IMG/VR virus record: IMGVR_UViG_3300020125_000547
Coordinates: 1-53,842 of that record
Origin: a virus
Lineage: Duplodnaviria > Caudoviricetes
DNA length: 53,842 nucleotides
Strand: one strand, 5' to 3'
The first letter of the stretch is position 1. Each line of letters starts with the position of its first letter. The position numbers were made by a program, and so were the translations under genes. Of this stretch, positions 15,202 through 51,855 are shown in pieces. The notes beneath the pieces were generated by a model. It worked only from the letters and a program-made list of their open reading frames with translations. It had not been told where the DNA came from and did no database searches.

Positions 15202-15500
15202 AGATCGGGATTGCTGGCTGTGGCGGGTGCCCGTTCCTCTACACCGGCAGCGAGGTGATCGAGCGCCGGTGTCGCGCGGTCGACCGGAGCCTGCCGGTCA
15301 ACACCCGGTCGCCCTACGGCGGCGAGCCGACGCCCGACTGGTGCCCGGCCCGCGAAGGCGTCGAGGTCCGGCTCGTAGCGCCGCCCGCGCGCAAGGTGAG
15401 CGCGCTCGCGAAGATGGCTGCGGCGCAGCCGACACGAACGCCGGGCGACCCCGATCCCTACGCGGGCGCGCTCGACGACTGGGGCTGGGACCTGGCCTAG
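15198..15500 (+). CDS. Small Cys-rich protein
   Basis: CGGCPF...C...PDWCP pattern common in phage small proteins. Confidence 0.55.
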   Translation: MKIGIAGCGGCPFLYTGSEVIERRCRAVDRSLPVNTRSPYGGEPTPDWCPAREGVEVRLVAPPARKVSALAKMAAAQPTRTPGDPDPYAGALDDWGWDLA

Positions 15501-17338
15501 CCCGCCCGCGCCGAGAATAGCGACACCCAGCCGACCTTCTTCGCGCGGCGCTCGCTGAGGCACTGGCTCATGTAGTCGATGCGGTCGTCGCGCGAGCCGT
15601 GTGGGAACGCCGCGAACTCGTCGACGAAAGTCTCCTTGCTGTCGCCCGGGGGCTTCACCAGCCACGCCGCGCCGTCGAGCAGGTAGATCAGGCCGGCCTC
15701 GAGCATAGGCTCCATGAACTCGGACCGCTGCGCCTTGTCGCCCTTGCCGGTCGGCTCGTAGTCCTTGACGACCGCGATCACGGCCTCGCCGGCTGCGTTC
15801 TTCAAGCCGTTGCCGATCGCCTCGCGAAGGTCCTGGATCATGCCCTCGCCGAGCGCCTTGTGCTCGATCCGGACGACGATCTTCGTCGTCCAGCCGGTGA
15901 GGTCGCTCGCGCGCGCGACCCCGCGCTTCATATGCTTCAAGGCGTCGTGCCAGCCGCACGGCCCCGGCGTCAGGTCCTCGAGCACGAACGCGCGCTCGGC
16001 CTTGCCGACGACGATCCCGAGCCCGAGCGCGCTCGCGGTCTTCTCGGTCGAGCCGCCGGTCGGGTCGATCGAGACCTCGACCCAATCGACGAGCAGCCGG
16101 CCGGCCTCGTCGCACTCGAGCACCCGCGCCGGCTCGCGCTCGCGCTCGGGCGAGATCCCGCGCGGCCGCATCCGCGGCGTGCCGTCGGCGGGGCCCCACG
16201 GGCTGTTGCCGTTGCCGCGAATCTGGAAGTATTTCCACAGGTTGAGCTTGAACTGGTTGCCCTCCTTGACGCCGGGCTCCTGCTCCATCTGCCCGGCGTA
16301 GCCGTGTGCGCGCAGCGTCGCCAGGCGCTCGGCGAGGTACTCGGGCGTGTAGCGGGCGTGCAGGACCTCGCCCTCCTCCTGGCGCCAGTCCTTCCACCCG
16401 AACGCGTTCGGCAGCCCGGCGACGCCGAGCTCGCACTGTCGACACTGGCACTTCGGCCGGCGCTTGAACCCCATCGGGATCCGCAGGTGGAACCAGCCGA
16501 GGTTGACGACGTGCTCGGAGAAGTCGCCCGGCCGCGCGCGCTGCATGATCGCGGTGCGGATGTTCCAGCGCGCGTCCGGTTGGCGCGAACTGATGTCGCC
16601 GTCGAACTTTTCGATCGCCTTGGCGATCTCTTCCGTCGTGTCATCCATCGCGTGCGCGTCGTCGAGGCAGGTCCAGTCGGAATCGAGCCCGATGACGTCG
16701 GAGCCCCACGCCTTTGCGCGCCGCGCGCCACCGGCGGTGTTGCCGATGCTCTGCAGCGCGTCCTGGTCGTCGCGGATGCGCCAGGCGCCGCCCTGGCTCG
16801 CGGGCCGACAGAGCACGAACAGGCGCTGGTACCAGTCGCCGGTGACGACGTCGCGGAACAGGCGCGCCGAGTCGAGCACGACGCCAGCGTTCGCCGAGAG
16901 GTACAGGATCCGAAGGAACGGCCAGCGAATCCAAGCCCATGCGTTGGCGAGGGTGAGCAGGATCGTCTTCAACGACCTGGGCGGGCAGTTGATCAGCAGG
17001 TTGGCTGCACGCGCGATCGCCGCCGGGTTGACCCGCTTGTGCATCGCGTCCTCGAGCTGCCCCTGGATGTGGAGGCAGATTGCGTCGAGATGCGGGCCCC
17101 ACTCGAGCGGCGTCGCTGCGAGCGCGGTTCGCTCCCACTGCTGGCGCGCGTAGTACGCGAAGCTCCGCTTGCAGCGCTCGGCGACGACGTGGTCGAGCGT
17201 GATCGGGACGTACTGGCGCTCCTCAGGCGGCGGAAGTGTCGGGCGCGGCGGCGCGGCGGCGTTCCGGCAGAGCGGGCAGCCGCCGGTGAGGCGCGCGAGC
17301 GCGTGGCCGCACGCGGCTGCCGGCGCGGCAGCGGTCAC
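15497..17338 (-). CDS. terL: Terminase large subunit
   Basis: LLINCPPRSLKT (Walker A), CLDDAH (Walker B), IMQR, SIDP and DDRIDYMSQ nuclease motifs. Confidence 0.92.
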   Translation of the reverse strand: MTAAAPAAACGHALARLTGGCPLCRNAAAPPRPTLPPPEERQYVPITLDHVVAERCKRSFAYYARQQWERTALAATPLEWGPHLDAICLHIQGQLEDAMHKRVNPAAIARAANLLINCPPRSLKTILLTLANAWAWIRWPFLRILYLSANAGVVLDSARLFRDVVTGDWYQRLFVLCRPASQGGAWRIRDDQDALQSIGNTAGGARRAKAWGSDVIGLDSDWTCLDDAHAMDDTTEEIAKAIEKFDGDISSRQPDARWNIRTAIMQRARPGDFSEHVVNLGWFHLRIPMGFKRRPKCQCRQCELGVAGLPNAFGWKDWRQEEGEVLHARYTPEYLAERLATLRAHGYAGQMEQEPGVKEGNQFKLNLWKYFQIRGNGNSPWGPADGTPRMRPRGISPEREREPARVLECDEAGRLLVDWVEVSIDPTGGSTEKTASALGLGIVVGKAERAFVLEDLTPGPCGWHDALKHMKRGVARASDLTGWTTKIVVRIEHKALGEGMIQDLREAIGNGLKNAAGEAVIAVVKDYEPTGKGDKAQRSEFMEPMLEAGLIYLLDGAAWLVKPPGDSKETFVDEFAAFPHGSRDDRIDYMSQCLSERRAKKVGWVSLFSARAG

Positions 17339-17422
17339 TGGTCAGCGAGGCGGTTTCCCGGGGACGTCGGCAGAATCACCCGGGAAGTATAACCTACTTG
17401 CGGCGTGAGCCGTGCCGGATGG

Positions 17423-17632
17423 TCACGGCCGCCGACTGCGCGCCCGCTTCTTGCGTAGCCGGGCTTTGTTCCCGCTTGCGCGGTTGATCTCGTCAACCGC
17501 GATACGCTGTTGATCCAGAAACGCGACGTGGCACTGGGAGCACCGCGGGTGCTTTCCTGAGGGTGCACCGCACTCGCAGATGCGATCGGTTGGCTCGTCG
17601 CTCAACTCGACCCCGGGAATCGTGGGGATCAC
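17423..17632 (-). CDS. Small zinc-finger protein
   Basis: CEC...CSQC; GTGA overlap. Confidence 0.5.
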   Translation of the reverse strand: MIPTIPGVELSDEPTDRICECGAPSGKHPRCSQCHVAFLDQQRIAVDEINRASGNKARLRKKRARSRRP

Positions 17633-18150
17633 GCGTCCTCCGACAAGCGGCCGGGCGGGCGCTTGCGTTTCTTCGCCGCCTCGAGTTCGGCGATCGCGGC
17701 GTCGCGCGCAGTTCGCATTTCAGTGAGTTGCGCTAGTATGGGTTGTTCGCGCGCGACCGCTGCGTCGTGCGCGGCCTGGGCCGTGTCGCGCGCCGCGCCG
17801 ACCGCGAGGAGCTCGGCCTGGAACGTTCGGAGGAGGTCGATCGCGGCTTGACACGGTTCCGGCACATCTTCTAGGAGCCCTTCGCCGACGATGTAGTCAC
17901 CCAGCTGGGTGATCGCTTCGTTGCACGCCTCGCGCTCCCATGCGCGCTCGAGCACGTCGATCGACGATCCGGGTTCGACCGCTTCCAGATTCGAGGCGAG
18001 CTCGCTGCTGTACGTGCCGTTGGCATGCTGCACCAGCACGTGCCACTGCCCGTTCGCGAGAGCCACCGCGCGGATGACGCCGCCGCGGTCGGGGAATAGG
18101 GGCTGGCCTTGCTGGTCGGTGTGCGTCCACCGCACGCGGTCACCGATCAC
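17629..18150 (-). CDS. Hypothetical protein with C-terminal coiled coil
   Basis: Coupled ORF in the groES operon. Confidence 0.6.
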   Translation of the reverse strand: MIGDRVRWTHTDQQGQPLFPDRGGVIRAVALANGQWHVLVQHANGTYSSELASNLEAVEPGSSIDVLERAWEREACNEAITQLGDYIVGEGLLEDVPEPCQAAIDLLRTFQAELLAVGAARDTAQAAHDAAVAREQPILAQLTEMRTARDAAIAELEAAKKRKRPPGRLSEDA

Positions 18151-18422
18151 AGGGTCGTCTCCGTCTCGGCCGCTTCGGCCGGGAACTCTTCGACCCCCAT
18201 CCGCAACAGCGCCACCGCGGCGCGCATGCGGTGCAGGGGGAGCGTCGAGTCACGGGCGATCGCGCCGATCGCGCCGACGACGGCGAGGCGCTCTTCGGCG
18301 GTGAGCTTGCCGACGTGGTCGACGAGCGCCTCGCCGGCGATGAGCCGGGGGAGTTCGGGCACCGGCGCGACGTTGCGGCGCGGCGGCAGCAGGACCGCCA
18401 AGATGGTCTCAATCGTTCTCAC
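18147..18422 (-). CDS. Hypothetical protein
   Basis: GTGA overlaps; GAGGA RBS. Confidence 0.55.
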   Translation of the reverse strand: MRTIETILAVLLPPRRNVAPVPELPRLIAGEALVDHVGKLTAEERLAVVGAIGAIARDSTLPLHRMRAAVALLRMGVEEFPAEAAETETTL

Positions 18423-18799
18423 GGGGTCTGGTCCTCGATCGCGATCGCGGCGGTGACTCTGCGGCCGGTGTTCATTGCGGCGAGTCGCTCCGCGAACGCG
18501 TCATCCTGCCCGATGATCCCGATCACCGCGTCGTCGGTGAGCAGGGTGAACTTGAGGCCGTCGACCGTGACCTCGGCGCCGAGCTGCGGCGGGAACACCA
18601 CGACGTCGCCGACGGCGCACTCGCACGGAATGATGTTGCCGTTCTCGGCGCGGCGGCCGCGCCCGACCGCGACCACAGTGCCCCGGTCGGCCTTCTTCTG
18701 CGCACTGTCCGGGATGATGATGAGGCCGACTTGCGCCGCAGGATCGTCGCGGCGGATCAGAACGTGGTTGCCCAGGGGGGTGATTTTGGGATATGCCAT
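18419..18799 (-). CDS. groES: Co-chaperonin GroES (Cpn10)
   Basis: PLGNHVLIRR...GLIIIPDSAQKK..RGTVVAVGRG...VGDVVVF...GAEVTVDG. Confidence 0.92.
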   Translation of the reverse strand: MAYPKITPLGNHVLIRRDDPAAQVGLIIIPDSAQKKADRGTVVAVGRGRRAENGNIIPCECAVGDVVVFPPQLGAEVTVDGLKFTLLTDDAVIGIIGQDDAFAERLAAMNTGRRVTAAIAIEDQTP

Positions 18800-18804
18800 G
18801 CACG

Positions 18805-18831
18805 CTAGGACGTCCGGTGCACGGACGATCC
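18805..18831 (-). promoter_or_regulatory. ECF-like promoter motif copy 8 (GGATC-N15-GTCCTAG)
   Basis: 5 nt before the groES ATG, no RBS. Confidence 0.75.
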
Positions 18832-18882
18832 TGCGGTCGGTGAGCGGTACAGGCAATGCACCTAGGCCAAGGGAGAGGTCAC

Positions 18883-19479
18883 ATGTCGAACACCAAACGC
18901 AATGGTACAGACCAGTTGGAGAACCTGGAGGCGCGGCTACACGAGCTCGGCGCCATGGCGCAGGCGCTCACCGAGCAGGTACGCCTCGCGCGCGGGACGC
19001 GCGAGATCACCCCACCACCGCCCGCCGCACCGGCCGAGCTCCCACTCGCCGATCGCCTGGCGGCGGTCCTTCGCGCCACACCGTCGTCAATCGAGGATCT
19101 GGTGGCCGCGCTTCACGTCCCCGCCGGGCGCATTGCGAAGGAGATGAAGGCGCTACGCGCCGCGGGTCTCGGCCGCAAGCTCTGGAACGCCGGCACCGAC
19201 GTTGCGCCGAAGTGGTTCTTGCCGCCGGGTCCGGACGCCACCCCCGAGGTGTTCGCCGCCGCAGTGCTGGCGCTGATCCGCCTACAGCCGCACTCGACTG
19301 GCGAGCTCCAGCAGGCTACCGGGACCATGGGGTCCAAGCGCGTGTGGCACGCGCTGGTGAAGCTCAATGACGCCAAGGGCTCGCGCATCGTGCGGTACGG
19401 CGACCCGCGACGGCCGCGGTGGTTCTGGCTCCCGGAGGGGATGGACCTGAGCAGGTTCGCGCCGCGCAGCGGCCGGTGA
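18883..19479 (+). CDS. Protein with two winged-HTH-like repeats
   Basis: Two helical segments each ending in P(K/R)WF; GGAGAGG RBS. Confidence 0.55.
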   Translation: MSNTKRNGTDQLENLEARLHELGAMAQALTEQVRLARGTREITPPPPAAPAELPLADRLAAVLRATPSSIEDLVAALHVPAGRIAKEMKALRAAGLGRKLWNAGTDVAPKWFLPPGPDATPEVFAAAVLALIRLQPHSTGELQQATGTMGSKRVWHALVKLNDAKGSRIVRYGDPRRPRWFWLPEGMDLSRFAPRSGR

Positions 19480-19548
19480 ATGGTGTGGCGCGGCGGATAC
19501 ACCGCGGCCGCGGTGTGAACGTGATGCCACAGGTGGCGTTCGGGTCTA

Positions 19549-19830
19549 ATGCGCGAGATCGCGCGGTTGGCGCGGGCACGGCGGGTGCAGCGGTCGGAGG
19601 GCATGGAGACAATCCCGACCGCGGTGCAGGATGCCGCCCACGTCAAGACCATAGAGGCAGGCGAATCACTTGAGGTTGCCGCGCGTGCTTTCGAGCGTCA
19701 CAGTGGCCCGGAGTCAACAGCTCGCGAGCGCGCGTTGTTTGGCCAGGACCTCCGCGCGGCCGCGATGTGTTACGCCCGCGCCTACTACGCCGAGGCTCGC
19801 GCGTACGGGCTCATCCCGGAGGCGTCGTGA
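19549..19830 (+). CDS. Hypothetical protein
   Basis: ORF heading a coupled plus-strand cluster; start uncertain. Confidence 0.5.
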   Translation: MREIARLARARRVQRSEGMETIPTAVQDAAHVKTIEAGESLEVAARAFERHSGPESTARERALFGQDLRAAAMCYARAYYAEARAYGLIPEAS

Positions 19831-20090
19831 CCGACGACGTCCGCAACCGCACCGCGCTCGTCGCGATGGCCGGCGCGCTCGCCCACCTCGACACCGCCGT
19901 CGCCCAGCTCGAGCGGGCGCAGCGCGACGCGGCCCGCGCACTGCCGGCCGGGCACGATCTGCTCTACACGTTCGACCGGATTATGCCGGACGTGCGGGTG
20001 CTGCAGCGCAAGGCCGAGCATGCGCTCGGCCGAGTGCCGTCTGGCGCACCTGCGGGCGCATCGGCACCCGCCCGGATGGTGCCTCGATGA
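19827..20090 (+). CDS. Hypothetical protein
   Basis: GGAGG RBS, GTGA overlap. Confidence 0.55.
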   Translation: MTDDVRNRTALVAMAGALAHLDTAVAQLERAQRDAARALPAGHDLLYTFDRIMPDVRVLQRKAEHALGRVPSGAPAGASAPARMVPR

Positions 20091-20257
20091 CGGCGCCGCG
20101 CTCCGCATCGGTGACCGTGCTGCACTGGACAGCGACCGACGGCCCGGTGGTGCAGCAGTTCGACCCGCGCGTACTCGCGCGCCCGACCCGCCGGCTGACC
20201 GCGGTCGAGATCGCTGCGCTGCAGGACCTCTGCTCGCCCTCGGAGCGTGTTCCATGA
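20087..20257 (+). CDS. Hypothetical protein
   Basis: ATGA overlaps at both ends. Confidence 0.5.
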   Translation: MTAPRSASVTVLHWTATDGPVVQQFDPRVLARPTRRLTAVEIAALQDLCSPSERVP

Positions 20258-20442
20258 TCCTCGCGATCCTGCTCACCCTCGGCGCGCTGGTCTGGCTTCC
20301 GGTCACGGCGGGCGTGCTGATCGTCGGCGCGGCCGGTGCGCTGTGGCTTCTCGACCAGATGCTCGGAGCGCCGGCGGTGGCGCCCTCGGTGGGTGGCGGC
20401 GATCGGCCGAGCACGGCCCCGCGGACGCCCCGTGCCACGTGA
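20254..20442 (+). CDS. Small membrane protein
   Basis: Long hydrophobic stretch MILAILLTLGALVWLPV... Confidence 0.5.
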   Translation: MILAILLTLGALVWLPVTAGVLIVGAAGALWLLDQMLGAPAVAPSVGGGDRPSTAPRTPRAT

Positions 20443-20800
20443 CCCGCTCGCCATCGACTGCCAAGCATGCGCGGCCGGTCCCGGTGTGCTGTGCCCGACC
20501 GCGACCGGACTGCACTGGGCGCGTGCGAAGGCGGCGGGGATGACCCCGGCTGAGATGCTGGCCTGGCGGCCTGCGGAAAGGCGGCCTGCGGAGGGGCCCG
20601 TCGCACCCCCGTCGTCGCCCGCCGCCGGGCCGGCCGTCGTCGGCCGGCTGCCGAACGCCGACGACCTCGGGATCACGCTTGCCGCGCTCGCGGCTGCGTG
20701 CGACCTCGCCGAGCAGCACGGCGCGCCGACGGCCGAGGTCGCGCGGTTGCGCGCCGTCGGCTCGTCGGTCGCAAGAACCGACGCTCATCGGGCGTCCTAG
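20432..20800 (+). CDS. Zinc-finger protein
   Basis: CQACAAGPGVLC...H..R motif. Confidence 0.55.
   Translation: MPRDPLAIDCQACAAGPGVLCPTATGLHWARAKAAGMTPAEMLAWRPAERRPAEGPVAPPSSPAAGPAVVGRLPNADDLGITLAALAAACDLAEQHGAPTAEVARLRAVGSSVARTDAHRAS
20774..20800 (+). promoter_or_regulatory. ECF-like promoter motif copy 9 (AGAAC-N15-GTCCTAG)
   Basis: 8 nt before ATG 20809; its TAG is also the upstream stop. Confidence 0.65.
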
Positions 20801-20808
20801 GAGAAGAC

Positions 20809-21720
20809 ATGTCAGATCAGAACGAGAGCTATCCGTCCGGCTGGACCCGCGTCGAGATCCTGAGCGACCGTGCGATCGTGACGTGCCGGCCAGGCCGGCA
20901 CTCCGCCGATGGATTGCGCCATCGAGTTCTGTCCGTGCTCGACGTCGAGGCCGTTCGGCTGGGGCACTGTACATCAGGCCACGTGCCGCTGAGCTTCGTG
21001 TACCACGTGTCGCTGTCGGGCACGGCGGTGTTCAACTACCGCGGCGAACCTCGGAACTCGACGGCCGCATCCCGAGCGCCCGCGGTGCACAGGACGGCAC
21101 AAGTCGCGGCGCAGTGCGGAGGGCCACGCCCGCCGGAGGCAGTGTGCGTCGTGTTTCCGTTGTGTCGGACCGCGGCCGGGATGGAGATCTCGGGGCCGGA
21201 GACGTACAGCGGAGATCGTCAAGTCGCACTACGCCGTGATGACGCCACGGCTGCGGTCAAGCGCCGGTCCGCCACCAACCAGCGGATCGACGGCCTGACG
21301 CCGCACCAGTGCCTCCAGGCGTTCACTGCCGCGCAGCGCGACCAGCGCACGTTCGAGACCTGGCTCCCGGCGGCGTGGCTCCGGGTCGGCGACGTGATCT
21401 CGATCGATATCCCGGCGCCGGAATGCATCGCCGCAGCCACGGTCACGCAGTTCAACGACCTCGGTTCGCGTGTGCTGCTCGGGCTGCGCACCTGCACCCG
21501 CGTCTGGCCGGAGGAACGTAACGCGGCAGAGGTATTCAAGGTCGCGCGCTCCACCGCCCTGACCCCGGCGCAGCGTGACTGCGCGCGACGGATGTGGTCG
21601 TGCCTTCTTCGGCACGATGTCGGCGTGTCGAATGCGCGCGCCGCCGCACGCGCGCCGTCGGTCGCGATCGCCGACGAGGGGCTGGAGATCGAAGCGCTCG
21701 CGGCGGACGTGCGGCCGTGA
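20809..21720 (+). CDS. Hypothetical protein
   Basis: Long ORF following promoter motif and AGGAG. Confidence 0.6.
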   Translation: MSDQNESYPSGWTRVEILSDRAIVTCRPGRHSADGLRHRVLSVLDVEAVRLGHCTSGHVPLSFVYHVSLSGTAVFNYRGEPRNSTAASRAPAVHRTAQVAAQCGGPRPPEAVCVVFPLCRTAAGMEISGPETYSGDRQVALRRDDATAAVKRRSATNQRIDGLTPHQCLQAFTAAQRDQRTFETWLPAAWLRVGDVISIDIPAPECIAAATVTQFNDLGSRVLLGLRTCTRVWPEERNAAEVFKVARSTALTPAQRDCARRMWSCLLRHDVGVSNARAAARAPSVAIADEGLEIEALAADVRP

Positions 21721-21911
21721 TCGGGTCACTGATCCGACGCCTGCGCGGCGCGCGCCCGCGGTGCGGCTGGTCGTTCGCCAGCGGCCACCCGCAGCTGAGC
21801 GTGTGCCCGAACTGCCGGCGGCCTGGGGCCGAGCATCCGCCGGCCGCGCCCGGCGCCCCGACCGTTCCTGGGGTTGACTGGTTGACGCCGATGCTGCGGG
21901 AGATCCGATGA
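21717..21911 (+). CDS. Small Cys-containing protein
   Basis: Overlaps both neighbours. Confidence 0.45.
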   Translation: MIGSLIRRLRGARPRCGWSFASGHPQLSVCPNCRRPGAEHPPAAPGAPTVPGVDWLTPMLREIR

Positions 21912-22168
21912 CCTTCCTCGACGCGCTGCGCGCCTCGCGAGCATGCAACCGGCCGATCAGGCAAGCCTCGTGGTGCCTGGGGCACCGGATCCAGTGGCAC
22001 GCGAAGGACGGCCGGTGGGTGTTCGCGAACCGTTACGAGCCGGACCTCCTCCTCGCGACCGCCGTCACGCGCGATGACTGGACGCACCGGCAGCTCGACC
22101 TGAGCCGGATGCAGGGCTGCCTGACGCCCGAGACGATGCTCGCCGAGGATTGGGAGGTTGTACCGTGA
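21908..22168 (+). CDS. Tad2/DUF2829-like protein, candidate anti-defence sponge
   Basis: MTFLDALRA...IRQASW...MLAEDWEVV, the N- and C-terminal signature of this family. Confidence 0.65.
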   Translation: MTFLDALRASRACNRPIRQASWCLGHRIQWHAKDGRWVFANRYEPDLLLATAVTRDDWTHRQLDLSRMQGCLTPETMLAEDWEVVP

Positions 22169-23535
22169 CCATCACGATCACCGAGTGCGGCTGGCGCTGC
22201 CTCAACATCGGCTGTCCGACGCGCGAGCCCGTGCGCGCGAAGGAGCCGCCGACCTGCTACACGTGCGAGCGGCCGATGGCCGAGGTGCACTACCCGGTGA
22301 CCGAGAAGGAGATCGGGCGACTGGCCGCGGCTATCGAGGTCGCCCCCTTCGGCGGTCCCGCCGTGCTGCTGTCGCAGGAGATGGCCGAGTACCGCTTGCC
22401 GCCGGATGACCTGGTCGAACTCAGCCCCCTCACGAAGTGGCTGCCCGAACCGGTCGCGAGGTGGCGGGCCGAGCGCGAGCTCGCGGCCGCGAAAGACGCG
22501 GTCGCACGCGGTGAGCGTGTGCACCAGGACGTCGAGCGGTATCTGCGCGAGCTACCGGGGCGCGAGTTCCCATACGGCTACGACGTGGTCGGGAAGGAAG
22601 TAGGGCGCGTGACGTACAGCGCGCGACGCGTCGGTGACTACGTCGCGCTCGTCGACCGCGTGAAGAACCCGGAGTGCCGTCTGCGCATCGACGATCCGGT
22701 CAGCGTCGGCTACGAGGCCGCCGTCGAGCACACATACCGTTGCACCCGCGCCGGCTGCCCTGTGCGCGAGCCGGTGAGCGCGAGCTCGCCGCCGACCTGC
22801 TACACGTGCCAGCAGCCGATGTCGGAGGTCGCCGAGTTCGTACGGCCGGCGTTGCCGGACCCGGGGATCGCCGCGGAGATCGAGTTCTTCCAGCGTCAGC
22901 TCGTCAACGCAGCCGCCATACCCGCCGCCCTGCTATTCGGCAAAGCCCCGGCCGGGCTCGGCGCTCGCGGCGAAGACGAGGCGGGCGCCATCGGGTGGCG
23001 CGCCGAGTACCAGCAGCGTCCGATGCCGGCGAGCGAGCGGGGCAGCTACAGCTTGAAGAACCTCGCGGGCATCATCGCACACGACCGCCTCGGCCGGCCG
23101 TGCGCTCGAAAGTGGGAGTACACGTACAGAGAACTGCGTGACGCCGCGCAACCGCATCCGCTCCGCAGCGTGACCGTGCAGTTCGGCGGCGCGGCACTCC
23201 GAGACGCACACTTCGAGCCGGCGGATGTAGTCGGGGCGCGGACGTGGACCGTGACGGCTGCGATCGATGAGACGGGGCTAGCGGCGCTGCACGACGCGCA
23301 CGGCTGCACGTCATCGCTCACCGCGGACGGGCACATGCTGTGCGAGCGCGCCGTGATGACCGACCTCCGGATCGAATCGCGCGACCTGTACCAGAAGGCC
23401 CGCGCGACCTTCCGTGAAATACTGACTGTCTGGACGAAAGCTACGCCGGCCGAGATCGGCACGATCGCGCGTGCGGACGGCCAAGCGTTTGTCTGCACGT
23501 CGGCCGGCACGACTGATCCGCAGAAAATTCCGTAG
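22165..23535 (+). CDS. Mosaic protein with duplicated zinc ribbon and portal-/terminase-like fragments
   Basis: Two C-x4-CPxREPV...PPTCYTC repeats; LLFGKAPAGLGARGEDE matches the portal of this phage. Confidence 0.65.
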   Translation: MTITITECGWRCLNIGCPTREPVRAKEPPTCYTCERPMAEVHYPVTEKEIGRLAAAIEVAPFGGPAVLLSQEMAEYRLPPDDLVELSPLTKWLPEPVARWRAERELAAAKDAVARGERVHQDVERYLRELPGREFPYGYDVVGKEVGRVTYSARRVGDYVALVDRVKNPECRLRIDDPVSVGYEAAVEHTYRCTRAGCPVREPVSASSPPTCYTCQQPMSEVAEFVRPALPDPGIAAEIEFFQRQLVNAAAIPAALLFGKAPAGLGARGEDEAGAIGWRAEYQQRPMPASERGSYSLKNLAGIIAHDRLGRPCARKWEYTYRELRDAAQPHPLRSVTVQFGGAALRDAHFEPADVVGARTWTVTAAIDETGLAALHDAHGCTSSLTADGHMLCERAVMTDLRIESRDLYQKARATFREILTVWTKATPAEIGTIARADGQAFVCTSAGTTDPQKIP

Positions 23536-23611
23536 GACTCGGCAGGTCCGCTGGCACGCTGCCTGCAGATGATCCCTTGCGCGGACCGTCCGCGGACGGC
23601 ACAGTCTGTGC

Positions 23612-26600
23612 ATGTCCGAAGACGGCACCGAGCCGGTACGCATCAAAGGTCGGTTCGCGCCGGGCCGTTCCGGTAACCCGGCCGGCGGCGCGCGGCGCGC
23701 CCGCTCGGACGCCGCGCCGCCGGGCGGACGCCCGTCGCGCCACGACGCCGACTGGGTCAACTTCTTCACCGGCCAGGGGGTCCTCGGCCGAGACAAGCGC
23801 CTCGGCGCGCACTTCAACGTCACCCCGCTGAGCTTCGACCAGCTCATGCACCTCTGGCTTGGCGACGACCTCGCCGCCCGGGCCGTCGAGATGATCCCGA
23901 AGGAGGCCCTCCGGCAGGGCTACGACGTCACGGTCGCCGACTCGCAGGAGGGCACCGACGAGGACACCGACGGGCTCGACCCGAGTGAGGCGTCGGCCGA
24001 GATCACGGACGAGCTCGAGCGCCTCGGCGCGAACGACGCGATCGAGATCGCCGGGTCGTACGAGCGCGGCTACGGCGGCGGCGCGATCCTGATCGGCGCG
24101 AACGACGGCCAGGCCGACCTGACCCAGCCGCTCAACCTCAAGGCCGTCCGCAGCCTCGACTTCTTGAACCCGCTCGAGGCGCGCGAGTGCATGCCGATCT
24201 ACGCGTACGGCGACCCGCGGGCCCCGAAGTACGGCGAGCCGGAGATCTACCGGATCATCACGCGGAGCGTGCTGCCGAGCCGGCAGGGGTTCTCGGCGCA
24301 GACGATGGAGATCCACGAGAGCCGTCTCCTGATCTTCCCCGGGATCCGGGTCTCGCGGTTCCAGCCGCTCGCCGCGCGCGCCGGCTGGGGCGAGGCGGTG
24401 CTCACTCGGATCTACCGGGTGCTGCGCGACTTCAATGCCGCCTACGCCAACACTGGCGTCCTGATCAACGATTTCTCCCAGGCGGTTGTGAAGATCGCCG
24501 GGCTGTGGGAGGCGCTCGCGCAGGACGCCGGCGCGTTCAACCAGCGCCTCCAGGCGATGGAGGCCGGCCGCTCGACCGTCAACGCGATCGCGATCGACGC
24601 CGGCGACAGCTACGAGCGCCAGCAAACGCCGGTGACCGGGCTCTCGGACCTGCTCGAGCGGTTCGGCGTGCGGCTCGCTGCCGCCTGCGACATGCCGCTG
24701 ACCCTGTTGTTCGGCACGAGCCCGGCCGGGCTCAACGCCACCGGCGAGAGCGACATCCGATCGTTCTACGACCGTGTTGCGAGCTACCAGCAGCGCAAGA
24801 TCCTGCCGAAGCTCCGGCAGATCTGCCAGATCCTGTTCCGCACGATCGGCAGCCGGAGCGAGCCTGTGAACTGGTCGATCAAGTTCCGGCCGCTGTGGCA
24901 GGAGAGCGCCAAGGACCAGGCGTCGGCCGCGGCCGCGCTGGCGCAGGCCGACACGGCGTGGACCACCGCGAGCATTCTCAGCTCCGACGAGATCGCGAAA
25001 GCGCGTTGGGGTAAGGGGCAGGAGTTCGCCGGTATCACCGTCGACTTCTCGGCCCGCGAGGCCCAGGACGATCTCGGATCGCAACCCGGAGACCAGGAGG
25101 TCGTCACGCTGCCGGGCACAGGCGGCGCCGCCGGGACCGAGGTTGCGGCTCAGGCGTTCAACGGCGCGCAGATCTCCAGCATGCTGGAGATCGTCAAGGC
25201 GGCGACGGCGCGTCAGATCCCCATGGGCTCGGCCACGGCGATCATCCAGACGGCCTTCAACCTGTCGCCCGACAAGGCGAAGGCAATCACGTCGAGCGTG
25301 GCCGCGGCCCCGCTGCCGCCTGCGGTGGGAGCGACGGAACCGGACGAGCCAGACGAGGATCCGGAGCCGGAGGGCCCCGCGCCGACACCCGACGAAACAG
25401 ACGGTCCTGCGCCGAAGGCCGGCGAAGCGCGCGGCGACAGCACCCCGCCGCCGCGGTGCGAGGCGTGCGGGCTGGAGATCGATCGCGACGCCGCCGACTC
25501 AGCGTGCGTGCTGTGCGGCAAGGAGTACATCCCGCCCCCGCCCTCCGGGTCGGCGCGGCCGCAGCCGGACGTAGTGCCGCCCGGTCCGCCCGCCGCCCCC
25601 GACCCGAACACGCCGCCGGTGCGGATGATCACCGCAGAGGACCGCGCGGACGCGTGCGCCCGGCCGGGGGCGCAGCGCCTCGACTTCGACCCCGACCAGC
25701 CTCGCGCCCCCGATGGGAAGTGGGGATCGGGGGGTAGTGGTACCGACCCCGGCCGCGCGCCCGACGATCGCACCGCGGCGGCGGTCAGGGATCCAGCGTT
25801 CACCGCGCCGAACCGCGAGCGTCTGATCGCAGCCGGCGACCGCGTGCGCGCGAACTACCCCCGCGACCAGCGCGCTACCGACGCCGTCCACGAGGAGGCT
25901 CAGAAGGAGATCCGCGCCGAGGCCGGCCGGATCCTACGCGAGCAGGCGGTCGTGGGGAGTGACCCCCGCATGCAGGCCGAGCTCGAGCGGGTGCGCGGCG
26001 ACATGCCGGTCGCGCGCGTCGGTGACGAGTCGGCCAAGCAGCACGACGTCCTGATGGAGCGCGTCACCGAGCGCCGCGCCGAGCTCGCACAACACGACGA
26101 GGCGCGCGCGGCCGGGCTCGTTCCGAAGGTGCCGGACGAGGCGCTCAAGGCGTACCAGACGGCCGCGGCGCAGCACACGCCGGCGCTCGACGCTGCGCAC
26201 GCCGAGGTCGACGCCGCGAGCCAGAAGGCTCTCGACGCGCTCGGGAAGTACAGCGCGCGCGCCGGCGACGAGGAGCGCGACGCTCTCTTCGAGGGCGACA
26301 AGGCGCCCGGCGATGCCGAGGAGCTGGCCGCAAGCTACGCCCACGCCGCCGACCGGCTCGGCGGGAAGGGCGACGTCGACGAGAGCGGCGACTTCCGCGA
26401 CGCGCCGCCGTCGCAGGACAGATACCGCGAGATGGTCGACCCGGAGCGACACGCGCCCCCGGCCGACGTCGAGATCCCGGACCACTTCCGCGACGAGGAG
26501 ACCGGCGAGCTCAAGTCGAAGTGGGAGCCCGACCCGAGCTGGGAGCCGGACCACGTCACGCACGAGGAGGCCCAGAAGCTCAATTTCGAGGAACACGAGG

Positions 26601-27397
26601 AGGGCGAGCGCGCCAAGACCGGGCCGTGGGATCCGGATCGTTTTGCGTACGAGCAGGGTCATCTTGATCCGGACAACTTGCTGGGCGACCCTGACAAACA
26701 CGGTCACGTAAGCGCGGACTTCGACCCGAGCGACTACGACGAGAGCTTCGGACACACGGCCGAGAAGCATGCCGCCCTGGTGGCTACGTGGAACGCGGCC
26801 GCGGACGCCGATCGCACCGAGTACGAGCGGATCGCCGACAAGTGGAAGGCTGAGGAGAAGGCGCACGACGCCGCCGACAAGGCCGCGTTCGAGCGCGTGC
26901 AGAAGGCGGTCGCGGCGCACGCGGACGCCAGGCGCCAGGCGGCCGACGACGCCCAGGCGGCGCTCGAGGATCTCCACGGCAAGCAGACCGCGGCGCTGGC
27001 GACCGCGAAGACGATCGACAGGGCGGTCGCGAAGCCGCTCGCGGCGGCAAAGACCGAGGTCGGCGAGGAGGACTTCTCTCCTTCCGATCATGCGCACGAT
27101 CGCATCGCGGAGCACCCGGCGCTCGCGACGGCGACGCCGGCTGACGAGGACGACGACGAGCGTGTGTTCGCCAGCGAGCCGCACGAGCGGCTCTATCAAG
27201 GCGCGCAGGGCGCATTCGGCGAGGACGTCCAGACCGCGCGGAGCACGCGCGAGGTGCTCGGGCAGCGACACGGCGCGCAAACGCAGGGTGCGCTCGAGGA
27301 GGCGCGCGACCACACAGCGGCGCTGGTGCGGGCGCTCTCGCAGGTCTCCGGCCGCGCGCCGGCGCTCGCGAAGCCGAGCCGGAAGAAGCCGCGGTGA
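23612..27397 (+). CDS. Portal protein (DUF1073 family) with ~770-aa C-terminal extension
   Basis: IHESRLLIFPG, GWGEAVL, AAACDMPLTLLFGTSPAGLNATGESD, IKFRPLWQES. Confidence 0.9.
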   Translation: MSEDGTEPVRIKGRFAPGRSGNPAGGARRARSDAAPPGGRPSRHDADWVNFFTGQGVLGRDKRLGAHFNVTPLSFDQLMHLWLGDDLAARAVEMIPKEALRQGYDVTVADSQEGTDEDTDGLDPSEASAEITDELERLGANDAIEIAGSYERGYGGGAILIGANDGQADLTQPLNLKAVRSLDFLNPLEARECMPIYAYGDPRAPKYGEPEIYRIITRSVLPSRQGFSAQTMEIHESRLLIFPGIRVSRFQPLAARAGWGEAVLTRIYRVLRDFNAAYANTGVLINDFSQAVVKIAGLWEALAQDAGAFNQRLQAMEAGRSTVNAIAIDAGDSYERQQTPVTGLSDLLERFGVRLAAACDMPLTLLFGTSPAGLNATGESDIRSFYDRVASYQQRKILPKLRQICQILFRTIGSRSEPVNWSIKFRPLWQESAKDQASAAAALAQADTAWTTASILSSDEIAKARWGKGQEFAGITVDFSAREAQDDLGSQPGDQEVVTLPGTGGAAGTEVAAQAFNGAQISSMLEIVKAATARQIPMGSATAIIQTAFNLSPDKAKAITSSVAAAPLPPAVGATEPDEPDEDPEPEGPAPTPDETDGPAPKAGEARGDSTPPPRCEACGLEIDRDAADSACVLCGKEYIPPPPSGSARPQPDVVPPGPPAAPDPNTPPVRMITAEDRADACARPGAQRLDFDPDQPRAPDGKWGSGGSGTDPGRAPDDRTAAAVRDPAFTAPNRERLIAAGDRVRANYPRDQRATDAVHEEAQKEIRAEAGRILREQAVVGSDPRMQAELERVRGDMPVARVGDESAKQHDVLMERVTERRAELAQHDEARAAGLVPKVPDEALKAYQTAAAQHTPALDAAHAEVDAASQKALDALGKYSARAGDEERDALFEGDKAPGDAEELAASYAHAADRLGGKGDVDESGDFRDAPPSQDRYREMVDPERHAPPADVEIPDHFRDEETGELKSKWEPDPSWEPDHVTHEEAQKLNFEEHEEGERAKTGPWDPDRFAYEQGHLDPDNLLGDPDKHGHVSADFDPSDYDESFGHTAEKHAALVATWNAAADADRTEYERIADKWKAEEKAHDAADKAAFERVQKAVAAHADARRQAADDAQAALEDLHGKQTAALATAKTIDRAVAKPLAAAKTEVGEEDFSPSDHAHDRIAEHPALATATPADEDDDERVFASEPHERLYQGAQGAFGEDVQTARSTREVLGQRHGAQTQGALEEARDHTAALVRALSQVSGRAPALAKPSRKKPR

Positions 27398-28377
27398 TGG
27401 CATCGTTGGTCGCGCGCGTCGCCCGTCCCTCCCAGGTCGCACGACGCGACGTCATCGAACGCGAGGGCACGGGGTGGTCCGTGTTCTCGGAGACGACGCC
27501 GCGTAAGCGGCTCGGTGGTCCGTACCGCTCGCGCACCGCGGCCGAGAAGAGGCTCGGCCAGATCGAGTTCTTTAAGCATCGGCGCGACGCCGCACGACCG
27601 CGTCCGCGGCTCCCCCGCCAGATGCCTCCGACTCGGATCGAGCAGGATTACGCGGCTGTGCTGATCCGAATGCTCGGTCGCGCGCGCGCGGCGTACGCGC
27701 CGCTGATCAAGGCGCTGCCGTCGATCCTGGAGGAGGCTGCCGCCGAGCGCGACGGCGCGCGCGCCGACAGCGCGTCAAGCCGAGCTCGTCGACTGCTTGC
27801 ACAGGCACGCGGATCCCCTGTGATCGACACGCGCGCGCTCGAGGCGCTCGCCGGCAAGTACGCGAAGGCGACGTCGGACCACCAGAAGGAGCAACTACGA
27901 CGCCAAGCGCACGCCGCGATCAAGGTCAACCCGGTGTTCAAGGACGCCGACCTGGCGCCGCTCTCGCGACATTTCGTACACGAGAACGTCGCATTGATCA
28001 AGCGTATCCCGGCGCGGCTGCACGACGACATCGAGGTGATGGTGCACCACGCGGTGTCGAGCGGGCGCCGGCACAAGCACCTGACCCGGCAGATCGAGGA
28101 CCGCTTCGGCGTCGCCGATCGCCATGCCCGGCTCATCGCGCGCGACCAGATCGGGAAGTTCCACGCCAAGGTCAACCACCACCGGCAGAGGGAGATGGGG
28201 GTCAAGAAGTTCGTGTGGCGGACGGTCGGTGACGAGCGGGTGAGGCCGTGGCACGAGGAGCTCGACGGCACCACGCACCGCTACAGCAAGCCGCCCGAGA
28301 ACCCGGACACCGGGGAACGGGCACTCCCCGGCGAAGAGATACAGTGTAGGTGTTCCGCTGAGCCAGTCTTTTCGTAG
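27394..28377 (+). CDS. MuF / SPP1 gp7-like minor head protein
   Basis: ARLIARDQIGK...WRTVGDERVRPWH...PGEEIQCRC. Confidence 0.92.
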   Translation: MMASLVARVARPSQVARRDVIEREGTGWSVFSETTPRKRLGGPYRSRTAAEKRLGQIEFFKHRRDAARPRPRLPRQMPPTRIEQDYAAVLIRMLGRARAAYAPLIKALPSILEEAAAERDGARADSASSRARRLLAQARGSPVIDTRALEALAGKYAKATSDHQKEQLRRQAHAAIKVNPVFKDADLAPLSRHFVHENVALIKRIPARLHDDIEVMVHHAVSSGRRHKHLTRQIEDRFGVADRHARLIARDQIGKFHAKVNHHRQREMGVKKFVWRTVGDERVRPWHEELDGTTHRYSKPPENPDTGERALPGEEIQCRCSAEPVFS

Positions 28378-29544: not shown

Positions 29545-29579
29545 CGCACCGGCACGGTCGGTGCTATGCTAGTTCCGTG
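29545..29579 (+). promoter_or_regulatory. Conserved 35-bp candidate late promoter, copy A
   Basis: CGCACCGGCACGGT-N3-TGCTATGCT-N3-TCCGTG, 28/35 identical to the copy at 45750. Confidence 0.65.
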
Positions 29580-31328
29580 CCGACTGCACATCCGCCAGCC
29601 GTCCGACGCGTGCACCGGACCGACCTGAGCACGCTCCAGCCCGTCGAGGAGCGCGACGACGGGACGATCGTTGCCGACGGGCGCCTGACCCGGTGCGGGG
29701 TGTTCACTTACTTCCAGCCCGACGGCTCCGTCCGACGCGAGCTCCGGCGGAGACAGGATGTCTGCAATCCTGCAAGTTTGCATACACTGATCGGCCGGCC
29801 GGTCACGAACAATCACCCGCCGGGGCTACTCGACGCGAAGACCGCGCGCGAGTGGATGGTCGGCGCACAGGCCGGCGACGTCACCGTCGACGAGGACCAC
29901 GTCCGAAGCAAGGTGTCGGTCCTCGACGCCTCGACGATTGGCGCCATGCGCGCCGGGAAGGTCGAGGTGTCGTGCGGGTACGAGTGCGACTGCCTCGAGA
30001 TCCCCGGCGAGGATCCGGTGTACGGCCGGTACGACGCGATCCAGACCAACATCAAATACAACCATATCGCGATCGTAGACAAGGGTCGCGCGGGGCCGAC
30101 CGCCGCCGTCCGCATGGACGGGTGGATGGTAGCGGAGCCGGCGGCCGCGCCCGGGCGGGGCGCGCGCGGCACGCGACTTGCTAGTCCGGCCTCCGCATGC
30201 AATCCTCGATCCATGGCCAAGCGCAAGTCGACCGCGGGAGCACGCGCCGAAGGGGCGCGCGGTGATGCCGCCGGGTCGCCCGACCCGAACGACGAAGCGA
30301 GCCGCAATGCCGGCGGCGACAACGACGCGCCGCCCGCGCCGAAGGCACCCGCCGCCGAGGGCGTCGAGCACGACGACGATGACACGGACGAGGGTGACGA
30401 AGTGGAGATGGACGCCTACGACGCCATGTACGGCGACGACGGCTGCCTGACCGACGCGACGCGCACGAAGATGGCGGCCGCGAACTTCGCTGTCCCGGGC
30501 AAGGAACGGCTTCCGATCCACACCGCGGACGCGGTGAAGGGTTCGATGAAGCGGTTCGGAGCTACGGAGTTCGATGACGCGGACGAGAAGCACGCGGCCT
30601 TCAACCGCATCAACGCGCGCGCCAAGGAATTTGGCGTCAGCACCACCAATTTTCAGCGCGCACACGGCGCCAAGCTCGACCGGGCCGGCGGCCCACGGAG
30701 CGATACCAGCATGACCGCAGACGAGATCAAGAAGCTCCAGGCGCGCGCCGACAAGGCCGAGGCCCGGAAGACGGCCCGTGACGAGGCCCGCACCCGCGCC
30801 GACGCTGCCGAGGCGAAGGTCAAGGAGCTCGAGGGCAAGGTCGCCGGGCTCGAGGGCCAGGTCAAGAGCCTGACCACGGACCTGGAGACGGCCAAGAAGG
30901 GGCACCTCGACTCGGCCGCGATCGACAAGATCGTCGCGGACCGCGCCGAGCTCGTCGCGACCGCGACGCGCGTCGGCGCCCAGGTCACCGCAGCCATGCC
31001 TCCGGTCGACATCAAGCGCGCGGTGATCAAGCACCTGGACAAGGACGACGTGCCGGCGGACAAGCACTCCGAGTACGTCGAGGCCCTATACCAGGGGGCG
31101 CTCAAGCGCCACAAGGCGCACGCGGACGCCACCCAGGCCGGTGCGAACGCGCTCGCCGCGGCGCGCGGCACCGGCGGTGCGACCACGCCGACCGTCGTGA
31201 CGCCGCCCGCGCCCGGCACCGGCGCGACCATGCCCAGCGAGGCCGAGGCCGCGGCCCGGATGCGGAACGATTCCGAGAACGCCTGGGCCAAGCCCGGCAA
31301 CGCCACCGCGCTGCGGGGAGGCTACTAG
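29577..31328 (+). CDS. Prohead protease/scaffold (DUF2213) with internal DUF6582-like domain
   Basis: TRCGVFTY, VTNNHPP, EVSCGYEC, YNHIAIVDKGRAG; NFAVPGKERLPIH; coiled-coil C-terminus. Confidence 0.88.
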   Translation: MPTAHPPAVRRVHRTDLSTLQPVEERDDGTIVADGRLTRCGVFTYFQPDGSVRRELRRRQDVCNPASLHTLIGRPVTNNHPPGLLDAKTAREWMVGAQAGDVTVDEDHVRSKVSVLDASTIGAMRAGKVEVSCGYECDCLEIPGEDPVYGRYDAIQTNIKYNHIAIVDKGRAGPTAAVRMDGWMVAEPAAAPGRGARGTRLASPASACNPRSMAKRKSTAGARAEGARGDAAGSPDPNDEASRNAGGDNDAPPAPKAPAAEGVEHDDDDTDEGDEVEMDAYDAMYGDDGCLTDATRTKMAAANFAVPGKERLPIHTADAVKGSMKRFGATEFDDADEKHAAFNRINARAKEFGVSTTNFQRAHGAKLDRAGGPRSDTSMTADEIKKLQARADKAEARKTARDEARTRADAAEAKVKELEGKVAGLEGQVKSLTTDLETAKKGHLDSAAIDKIVADRAELVATATRVGAQVTAAMPPVDIKRAVIKHLDKDDVPADKHSEYVEALYQGALKRHKAHADATQAGANALAAARGTGGATTPTVVTPPAPGTGATMPSEAEAAARMRNDSENAWAKPGNATALRGGY

Positions 31329-31332
31329 CACC

Positions 31333-31881
31333 ATGCCCGTTCAGACCAGCTACAACGCGGCGCCGGCTGCGGCGTTCGCCGGCATGCTCGCGGACGACAC
31401 CGAGAACGACGTCATGACCGTGATCAACGCCGACTCGGTGTCGATCCCGTTCGGCATCTGCGTCGCGTTCAAGACCTCCTCGCCCACGAGCGACAAGGAC
31501 GTGATCCTGCCTGGCGCGACGCCGAAGCTCGCGGGCATCGTGGTCCACAACCACGACTTCGCTCGGTCCGTGACCGTGCTCGACCTCGCGGGCAACAGCG
31601 TCACGATCGGCGAACTCGATTCGACCGGCGTCGTCGCCGGCGCGGTGATGGGGATCCTCTGGCGTGGGACGATCTGGGTCAAGGTGCAGCAGGCCGTCGT
31701 CGTTGGCGACCGACTGTTCGTCTGCACCTCGGCCGGGACAACCTTCACCGCCAAGGGCCAGATCGGCAACGCGGACGAGTCGAGCAACACCGTCGACGCG
31801 ACCGCGATCGGTCGGTTCATCTCCTCGGCGGCGATCGGTGGCTTTGCGAAGCTGCAGGTCGACTTCAGCCAGAAGCCGTAG
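31333..31881 (+). CDS. Head decoration/cement protein
   Basis: VQTSY...AFAGMLAD, IPFG..V, GILWRGTIWV; lies between protease and capsid. Confidence 0.75.
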   Translation: MPVQTSYNAAPAAAFAGMLADDTENDVMTVINADSVSIPFGICVAFKTSSPTSDKDVILPGATPKLAGIVVHNHDFARSVTVLDLAGNSVTIGELDSTGVVAGAVMGILWRGTIWVKVQQAVVVGDRLFVCTSAGTTFTAKGQIGNADESSNTVDATAIGRFISSAAIGGFAKLQVDFSQKP

Positions 31882-38828: not shown

Positions 38829-39266
38829 ATGCCCGTCAAGAAATACTCTCCCAAGAAGGTCACCGGCAGCTGGAGCCCGCCGGGCACCACGATCCAGCCG
38901 ACCGGCTTCATGGACGGCACGTTCCTCGAGATCGAGTACGCCGAGGACGCCGTCACGATCCACGTCGGCGCCGATGGTACGGTCTCCGCGGTGCTCAACG
39001 CGAACAAACTCGCCTACGTCACGCTGACGCTGGCGCAGACCAGTGCCGACAACGCAAAGTTGTCCGCGCAGGTGCCCGACGCCGACGCGAACCGGCTACC
39101 GTCGGGAGCGATGAACTGGGAGGACCTAAACGGCCTCAGCCTGATCCACGGCGAGGACGCCTTCATCGTCAAAACCGCGGCCGTCGAGTTCGGCAAGAGC
39201 ATCACCGGCCGGAAGTGGAAGTTCGCGATCACGAAGGCCGTCATCAATGTCGGCTCGGGGGGCTAG
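38829..39266 (+). CDS. Tail tube protein (DUF3277-like)
   Basis: YSPKKV...GF.DGTF.EI...VGADG...TLTLAQTS..N..LS. Confidence 0.85.
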   Translation: MPVKKYSPKKVTGSWSPPGTTIQPTGFMDGTFLEIEYAEDAVTIHVGADGTVSAVLNANKLAYVTLTLAQTSADNAKLSAQVPDADANRLPSGAMNWEDLNGLSLIHGEDAFIVKTAAVEFGKSITGRKWKFAITKAVINVGSGG

Positions 39267-51232: not shown

Positions 51233-51855
51233 TGCCAGGATCGTTCGACGATAGTTTCGACAGCTCCGCTTTTGAGGCCGAGGAGACAACGCAGGCCGGC
51301 GAAGAACTCAGTAATTTTGAGTCCGTCGTGCAGATCTTGCTCTCGAAAGCACAGGATTGGGACAACGTCGCGATCACCGTGCGCGACGAGAGCGTCGACA
51401 CGGCGGTGGGGATCAACCTTGATCGGAAGTACGGCAACTCGGTCGGTCTCCCGCGGGACGCGTCGCCGTTGTTCTCGCCGATCGTCACCGCGGATGACCC
51501 GTACCGGCGCGCGATCCGAGCGCAGATCGCTACGAACCATTCCGTGGGCCGGCGCGGCGACAACATCCGGATCGCGCGGCTGATCCTCGACGACGTCACC
51601 GCGACGATCGGGATCCAGCGATCGGGCACAGCAGCGCTCGTGGTGCAGATCGGCGGCGCGGCCGTGCTGTCGACCACCGAGGCCGTGCTCGTGCTGTTCC
51701 TGACACGCGCGGCGAGCAACGGCGTTCGCGTCGTGGTCTCGAGCTTCGCGGTCCCGCCGGCGGGGGCGTTCCTGCTCGGGACCGGCACGGTCGACAACAC
51801 GGCGGCGCCCGGGTCGGGGTCCGCGCTTGCTGATACCCGATCGATCGATTCATAG
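51232..51855 (+). CDS. Baseplate wedge protein (gpI/DUF2612-like)
   Basis: VDTAVGINLD..G..VGLPR...DDPYRRAIRAQIATN.S.G. Confidence 0.8.
   Translation: MPGSFDDSFDSSAFEAEETTQAGEELSNFESVVQILLSKAQDWDNVAITVRDESVDTAVGINLDRKYGNSVGLPRDASPLFSPIVTADDPYRRAIRAQIATNHSVGRRGDNIRIARLILDDVTATIGIQRSGTAALVVQIGGAAVLSTTEAVLVLFLTRAASNGVRVVVSSFAVPPAGAFLLGTGTVDNTAAPGSGSALADTRSIDS

Follow-up and report, generated by a model that had tools for sequence, protein, structure and literature searches.

A zinc-ribbon protein with a portal-like segment encoded ahead of the portal gene of an uncultivated tailed phage

Introduction

The portals of the PF06381 family (Phage_portal_3), among them Pam3 gp3 (8HDS) and E217 gp19 (8FVH), are the closest described counterparts of the protein analyzed here, P0001. 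This protein is encoded at positions 22165-23535 (+ strand) of a 53.8-kb viral metagenome record (IMGVR_UViG_3300020125_000547; Caudoviricetes), and "the window" refers to all 53,842 nucleotides of that record, which has about 70% G+C, is classed as linear, and is about 89% complete. About 100 residues of the PF06381 portals, including the tunnel-loop motif, can be aligned with P0001. Unlike these portals, P0001 lacks the N-terminal part of the wing, the first stem helix, a complete clip, and the crown; its portal-like segment is joined with a pair of zinc ribbons and with a C-terminal region that is unrelated, and a complete portal gene adjoins it.

The topology of a portal subunit was taken from T4. 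As excerpted, the T4 study (PMC4493910) describes two stem helices joined by the clip, with the tunnel loop lying between the second stem helix and a bent wing helix. When the tunnel loop was deleted, 11-mers made up as much as 28% of the rings, which the authors explain by contacts between the tunnel loops of adjacent subunits (PMC4493910, same excerpt).

Three further families bear on P0001. YdjO (PF14169) and DUF7576 (PF24461) share the spacing of four cysteines with the P0001-family ribbon; weak matches occur in five (YdjO, best E 5.6e-5) and four (DUF7576) of 13 aligned relatives, all under the curated thresholds. Both families lack the portal-like helix, and their functions offer no lead for P0001. 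The third is the cement family PF22758, of which the E217 gp24-type protein is described as a beta-tulip trimer in the excerpted text of PMC10329688. P0001 has an exact 9-mer in common with the cement protein of its own phage and matches it at 14 of 34 residues. The titles and abstracts found in searches for portal-like or truncated portal proteins and for Avs4 decoys point to no separately encoded portal fragment of the P0001 kind; the architecture is undescribed and partly built from a known fold.

Results

Portal-like segment

We compared P0001 with the portal of its own phage (P0002), and 25 of 64 aligned residues were identical (BLASTP, P0001 residues 225-287 against portal residues 334-397, E 6e-7). 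A first-pass annotation of the window had described P0001 as a patchwork of portal, terminase, and tail pieces, and the portal likeness was confirmed where that annotation had placed it. The match scored 39.3 bits among the 44 window proteins, all 300 shuffles scored lower (maximum 28.5), and a six-frame search of the whole record recovered it at E 1.5e-6. A portal from elsewhere, P0021, was 28% identical to P0001 over 155 amino acids (aa) in a pairwise comparison (E 1e-11) and matched at E 6.6e-4 across a library of 1.84 billion proteins.

For the profile comparison, a portal profile (A3) was built from 29 rows, comprising the window portal, P0021, and 27 of 38 portal loci from viral contigs; the remaining 11 loci were near-duplicates, truncated frames, or over-long frames. 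With hhalign, P0001 residues 221-326 (22825-23142, +) were aligned to this profile at portal residues 331-430 (24602-24901, +) with a probability of 90.9% and E 1.2e-6 over 98 columns. The portal likeness is thus significant. The fragment matched 20 of the 29 portals at E<0.01, in the same region every time, and the tunnel-loop motif is kept (P0001 FGKAPAGLGARGEDE, portal FGTSPAGLNATGESD). On these alignments, the segment is best described as portal-derived and collinear with many portals at one region. P0001 outside residues 221-326 matched nothing in the portal profile, and the profile run against the whole record at E<=10 found nothing beyond the portal itself and the P0001 piece. A decayed second portal gene was ruled out, as no further portal-like piece occurs in any frame. 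A sequence search of the PDB with P0001 gave a best E of 0.73, and the ESM Atlas returned nothing usable for the whole protein or for residues 327-456.

Modeled with AlphaFold (pLDDT 74, pTM 0.67), the portal domain matched the solved portals of T1, Pam3, FCWL1, and E217 with a probability of 1.00. Its elements are, in order, strands 325-329 and 333-338, helix 344-359, a short helix and loop to residue 378, a 33-residue helix 379-411, strand 421-425, and the terminal helices. From the order of these elements and the T4 topology, rather than from a superposition, the P0001 segment would correspond to the last clip strand, the second stem helix, the tunnel loop, the long wing helix, and the following strand. 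A complex prediction of portal residues 45-500 with P0001 residues 186-335 scored 0.00 and counts neither way.

A rare family with a shared portal-like motif

An exhaustive phmmer search over 1.84 billion representatives returned 21 proteins at E<=0.001, query included, one of which (P0021) is a true portal. The family alignment (A1) comprises 13 of the 21; P0021, the repeat open reading frame (ORF) P0010, and six short ribbon-only matches were omitted. P0010 was rejected as a relative due to three tandem repeats that inflate its score. This 243-aa metagenomic ORF matches P0001 residues 341-385 with 38% identity over 45 aa, a value probably inflated by the repeats.

Nine of the 13 aligned proteins (P0001, P0004, P0005, P0006, P0007, P0009, P0011, P0013, and P0015) carry a helix that ends in an [IVLM]P turn, usually 'IP(P)..LL', about 10-40 residues past the ribbon. 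When the portal hidden Markov model (HMM) was run against the 20 relatives, with the portal left out, four matched at E<0.001 and eight at E<=0.11, every one of these within HMM columns 295-348, and the best local match fell at columns ~295-348 in 11 of the 20. The shuffle control gave 0 of 1000 at E<0.01 and 3 of 1000 at E<0.11. The family profile was aligned to the portal profile by hhalign with a probability of 78% (E 1.7e-5, 37 columns), and P0004 alone with 77% (E 2.1e-5). Since the portal HMM matches the relatives at the same columns and beyond the shuffles, the motif of stem helix and loop start can be regarded as a trait of the family. Likeness beyond it, which takes in the loop and the wing helix, was found in P0001 only and in part in P0004. 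The family unit is a four-cysteine zinc ribbon with a helix and an 'IP..LL' turn behind it; the helix and turn match the second stem helix and the tunnel-loop start of the portal, and the unit is duplicated in P0001. A close relative with 57% identity, P0003, lacks P0001 residues 253-391, and its frame is still open; we read it as a deletion form because the 'IP..LL' turn is kept in most relatives.

All relatives come from metagenome assemblies. Ten were looked up: nine are single-member clusters, one is a two-member cluster, and only one bears a name ('hypothetical protein'). Pfam and PHROG, searched with the 13 relatives, have no entry covering the family, and GenBank phages gave no match to the P0001 sequence in tblastn or megablast. 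A family-alignment profile search of a 5.8-billion-protein set added nothing. Genome contigs searched for family loci gave none, and viral contigs yielded no loci with the portal alone or with a second family alignment.

Conserved place ahead of the portal

A syntenic orthologue was found on L004, a 5.7-kb metagenome contig. Its gene order is a GroES-like homologue (54% identity), a homologue of the window ORF 20698-21720 (31%), a small ORF, P0004, and the start of a portal gene. P0004 has both ribbons and shares 37% identity with P0001 across 279 aa (E 1e-37). The C-terminal tail DPQKIP of P0001 (23515-23532, +) has the counterpart EPQKIS in P0004. On L004 the portal starts about 60 nt after P0004, with first residues that match the window portal. 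As P0004 sits in the same order ahead of a portal start, the P0001-type gene holds its pre-portal place in two diverged phages. P0001 comes from an uncultivated phage, where its conserved gene is an accessory to the head-gene block; its family is rare and known only from metagenomes.

Zinc ribbons

The duplicated zinc ribbon reported by the first-pass annotation, with an exact 22-bp identity at 22245-22266 and 22788-22809, was verified. Ribbon 1 spans 22192-22287 (+; residues 10-41) with the arrangement C-x4-C ... C-x2-C and an AlphaFold pLDDT of 80-90. Its duplicate, ribbon 2, spans 22735-22830 (+; residues 191-222) with a pLDDT of 94-96. The two share 21 of 32 residues (E 2e-14), and their DNA is 82% identical over 78 nt (22209-22286 and 22752-22829, 543 nt apart), rising to 94% in a 34-nt stretch. 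All 13 aligned relatives keep cysteines C193, C198, C212, and C215 of ribbon 2 unchanged, as well as the ribbon Pro, Arg, and CYTC columns. By arrangement and conservation, both are four-cysteine zinc ribbons with predicted metal binding.

A further motif, 'VALVD..P.CR...D.V', lies at 22633-22704 (P0001 residues 157-180) and is common to P0001, P0005, and P0008, and less clear in P0004. In some of these proteins it stands 5' of the ribbon, in P0008 after it, an arrangement suggestive of module shuffling within the zinc-ribbon family.

Gene structure and expression signals

The P0001 ORF starts with GTG and encodes 456 aa plus the stop codon; in the ORF listing, the frame opens further upstream, to a TTG at 22150. 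A Shine-Dalgarno-like GGGAGG, read from the sequence, lies at 22152-22157 (+), 7 nt ahead of the GTG. The GTG is overlapped by the TGA (GTGA) of an upstream 86-aa ORF (21908-22168, +), which has no assigned function and matched neither Pfam nor PHROG. The G+C content at third codon positions is 0.86 overall and 0.78-0.98 across nine of nine 150-nt windows, with a second-position G+C of 0.44-0.58 in the same nine; this pattern is the coding signature of the neighboring genes. With this signature along the entire ORF, the ribosome-binding site, and the GTGA overlap, P0001 is a real gene that is coding throughout.

The portal gene starts 77 nt 3' of the P0001 ORF. A scan of 17300-24000 found no promoter-like site and one terminator-like site, at or below shuffle expectation. 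The spacer between P0001 and the portal contains a perfect 14-nt palindrome, CCGTCCGCGGACGG (23586-23599), and a short hairpin at 23598-23615 ends at the portal ATG; the portal start of L004 is likewise covered by a hairpin. The RNA fold of the spacer was not significant against shuffles (z -1.69).

Cement, terminase, and tail likenesses

The patchwork description was retained in part: the portal piece and a short cement piece stood, and the terminase and tail pieces were unsupported. The cement-like stretch lies at the C-terminus (23425-23514, +; residues 421-450) and ends in FVCTSAGTT (23488-23514), which the first-pass annotation had listed within a terminal module. The 9-mer is real, and its partner is a head protein rather than a tail one: it recurs exactly at 31717-31743 (+) in the phage's own cement gene (31333-31881, PF22758). 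Only 1 of 3000 shuffles shared a 9-mer with the window proteome, and in the window, other sharing of at least eight residues is limited to paralogous repeat proteins. The 27 nt that encode the 9-mer differ at five sites; as all five differences are synonymous, the peptide stayed the same as the DNA drifted. The BLAST score of the cement match, 24.3 bits, is not above shuffles. P0001 had no Pfam match to PF22758, hhalign against a four-sequence cement profile gave a probability of 6.5% at another place, and the three cement homologues aligned (L005-L007) are without the 9-mer. The shared 9-mer is probably non-random.

As a separate observation, exact 12-mers are common to the sheath protein (37157-38800) and a 498-aa protein (51865-53361), and to the N-termini of the adjacent genes 50198-51232 and 51232-51855; these proteins probably share repeat or adaptor domains of tail proteins.

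The large terminase (TerL) motif YQQxP, which the first-pass annotation had recognized in P0001, did not hold. YQQ.P occurs once in six frames, in P0001 only, and is absent from TerL (15497-17338, -), and YQQR belongs to the portal alignment. The best match of P0001 to TerL reached 19.2 bits (E 7), under the shuffle mean of 22.1. The proposed IDDP echo has its sole other six-frame occurrence at 17960 (+), with no meaningful partner. The supposedly tube-like SVTVQFGG has no second occurrence in the window; P0001 did not match phrog_280 at E<=0.1, and the tube protein (38829-39266) was outside the 15 best P0001 matches in the window-proteome search. In the family at large, a single one of the 13 relatives has a phrog_280 match (E 0.0083), and the C-terminus of P0005 (residues 107-134) is 34% identical over 32 aa (E 0.051) to the N-terminus of the tube-like protein 38829-39266, a weak lead that some relatives may carry a tube-like piece.

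Surrounding genes

The window block comprises head and contractile-tail genes of the E217/Pam3 type and includes sheath, tube-like, tape measure, and baseplate genes. The portal P0002 (23612-27397, +) has 1261 aa with the PF06381 domain at residues 77-448 and a long C-terminal extension. It is followed by a MuF-like protein (27394-28377), a DUF2213 protease (29577-31328), the cement protein, and the major capsid protein (PF09950, 32327-33598). The portal extension of about 770 aa (25112-27397, residues ~500-1261) is rich in acidic and helical stretches and contains a CxxC...CxxC pair near residues 614-632; beyond the portal domain the only family matches are weak ones. The portal frame of the record of L003, a viral locus with a P0001 relative, is also long (1081 aa).

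TerL was found in nine of the 38 related portal loci, and each of the nine has it immediately ahead of the portal and on the portal strand; the window TerL has the opposite orientation and is some 6 kb away from the portal. Since TerL adjoins the portal in 9/9 related loci that have it, these 6 kb are an extra region, which contains a Cpn10/GroES homologue (18419-18856, -; PF00166, E 3.4e-22), several ORFs without assigned function, and the P0001 ORF.

Discussion

The portal likeness of P0001 runs for about 100 residues behind the second ribbon, and we therefore read the protein as zinc ribbons joined to an offshoot of a PF06381 portal gene, one that is old and evolves fast. The idea that the resident portal gene was copied recently was rejected on the DNA identity of only 62% between segment and portal and on a tree that does not pair them. 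The first-pass annotation had claimed the portal match at the DNA level also, and this was not upheld: the 62% extends over 188 nt, and unrelated window stretches reach 60-66% over 117-244 nt. As to function, we tentatively propose that P0001 may dock on portal subunits as a pseudo-subunit and affect the formation or incorporation of the ring. The proposal derives from the place of the segment, whose counterpart in the portal ring would line the channel and touch adjacent subunits. P0001 is probably co-produced with the portal, whose gene starts so close downstream; it would bind portal subunits and could alter ring formation or entry of the portal into the procapsid. Among the three roles named by the first-pass annotation (sensor decoy, assembly modulator, and recombination debris), we favor that of an assembly modulator, by inference only.

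Pilus chaperones and similar proteins act by mimicking a subunit interface. The likeness we propose to such chaperones would be one of logic only, a separate protein bearing a piece of the ring-subunit contact; P0001 has no sequence or fold relation to them.

Several results weigh against the docking of an offshoot portal piece. In Pfam, P0001 was the sole one of 13 relatives to match PF06381, and its 17.4 bits stayed below the gathering cut-off of 33.8, with the match confined to residues 234-273. P0001 also covers portal residues 331-430 of about 45-490; with a score under the Pfam threshold and most of the fold missing, it is not a portal. The AlphaFold model of the whole protein, computed with the 13 relatives, had a mean pLDDT of 50, and as the zinc ribbons alone were confident, the portal-like part may fold otherwise than in a portal. 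None of the 38 related portal loci carries a family member, which argues that the gene is dispensable for a PF06381-type head and stands outside the general head module. L003 is the only further viral record containing a relative; there the gene neighbors the tail sheath gene and is separated from the portal of that phage by about 13 kb. The tree of the shared region gives the P0001 fragment a branch length of 3.15 changes per site, where the median is 0.62, and places it with P0021/L011 (support 90/89) instead of its own portal, a placement that is unsure for so long a branch. Such a branch fits a changed or relaxed constraint as well as a new function. The dN/dS ratio between P0001 and its L004 orthologue (NG86, ~0.6-0.7) is uninformative because dS is saturated.

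Among the rival explanations, P0001 could be a zinc-ribbon protein with another job, such as nucleic acid binding or late-gene regulation, in which the portal piece is an inherited helical spacer that does not contact the portal. We consider this somewhat unlikely. The ribbon is the best conserved and the sole confidently folded part, relatives join the core to unrelated flanking domains, one relative lies far from the portal of its phage, and weak ribbon matches to YdjO (5/13) and DUF7576 (4/13) point the same way. However, the helix and 'IP..LL' turn are kept family-wide at matching columns of the portal profile, P0001 retains even the tunnel-loop motif, and no DNA-binding or regulator family appears among the Pfam and PHROG matches. 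Less probable again is a near-neutral mosaic, in which fragments of neighboring structural genes were brought together by illegitimate recombination and stay in frame without use. The echo of two head genes, portal and cement, would fit such a mosaic, as would the open frame of P0003 despite its missing residues, the long branch of the fragment, and the fact that past residue 271 P0001 can barely be aligned with its orthologue P0004. It is countered by a portal-like core that is a family trait older than the phage lineage, by the purely synonymous differences (5/5) in the 9-mer, and by the coding signature that is intact over the entire ORF. The motif core in distant relatives and the orthologue upstream of a portal indicate a conserved gene, not debris; the debris reading of the first-pass annotation is also disfavored by the zinc ligands invariant in 13/13 relatives.

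An anti-defence decoy, whose portal- and cement-like pieces would occupy STAND/Avs sensors without triggering them, appears very unlikely. The excerpted text of a 2026 preprint (10.64898/2026.01.04.697583) names portal proteins as the targets sensed by Avs4 and Avs11, and tail proteins as those of other Avs families; P0001 does bear a piece of at least one sensed target. Yet it contains only about 100 of the roughly 400 residues of the portal fold, its sequence has no sensor-directed feature, and the papers found on Avs4, portals, and decoys suggest, by title and abstract, no portal-like decoy; in one of them, the word 'decoy' is a mass-spectrometry term. The least probable rival is a dominant-negative poison directed at competing phages with PF06381 portals, as in superinfection exclusion. 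Its own portal (40.4 bits) is indeed no nearer to the fragment than another portal lineage is (46.2 bits), but the tree placement of so long a branch is unreliable. The gene also lies inside the late structural block in the orientation of the portal, with no promoter-like site nearby, so P0001 would be made while its own portal is being assembled.

A broader reading, which we regard as unlikely at present, is one of modular interface mimics: a zinc-ribbon family with short copies of virion subunit-contact pieces that would cap or chaperone the self-assembling virion proteins until assembly is due, or would blind host sensors directed at these conserved pieces. The pieces would be the portal stem helix and tunnel loop family-wide, the cement strand in P0001, and possibly the tube N-terminus in one relative.

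The formation of the portal ring and the restriction to one ring per capsid are poorly understood steps. If P0001 does dock on the portal, a separate natural copy of the tunnel-loop part beside the portal would be a ready probe of these steps. Were host sensors its target instead, P0001 would illustrate how a phage can build a protein out of part of what those sensors detect. In both cases, the gene shows that fragments of essential virion genes can be co-opted for new accessory genes.

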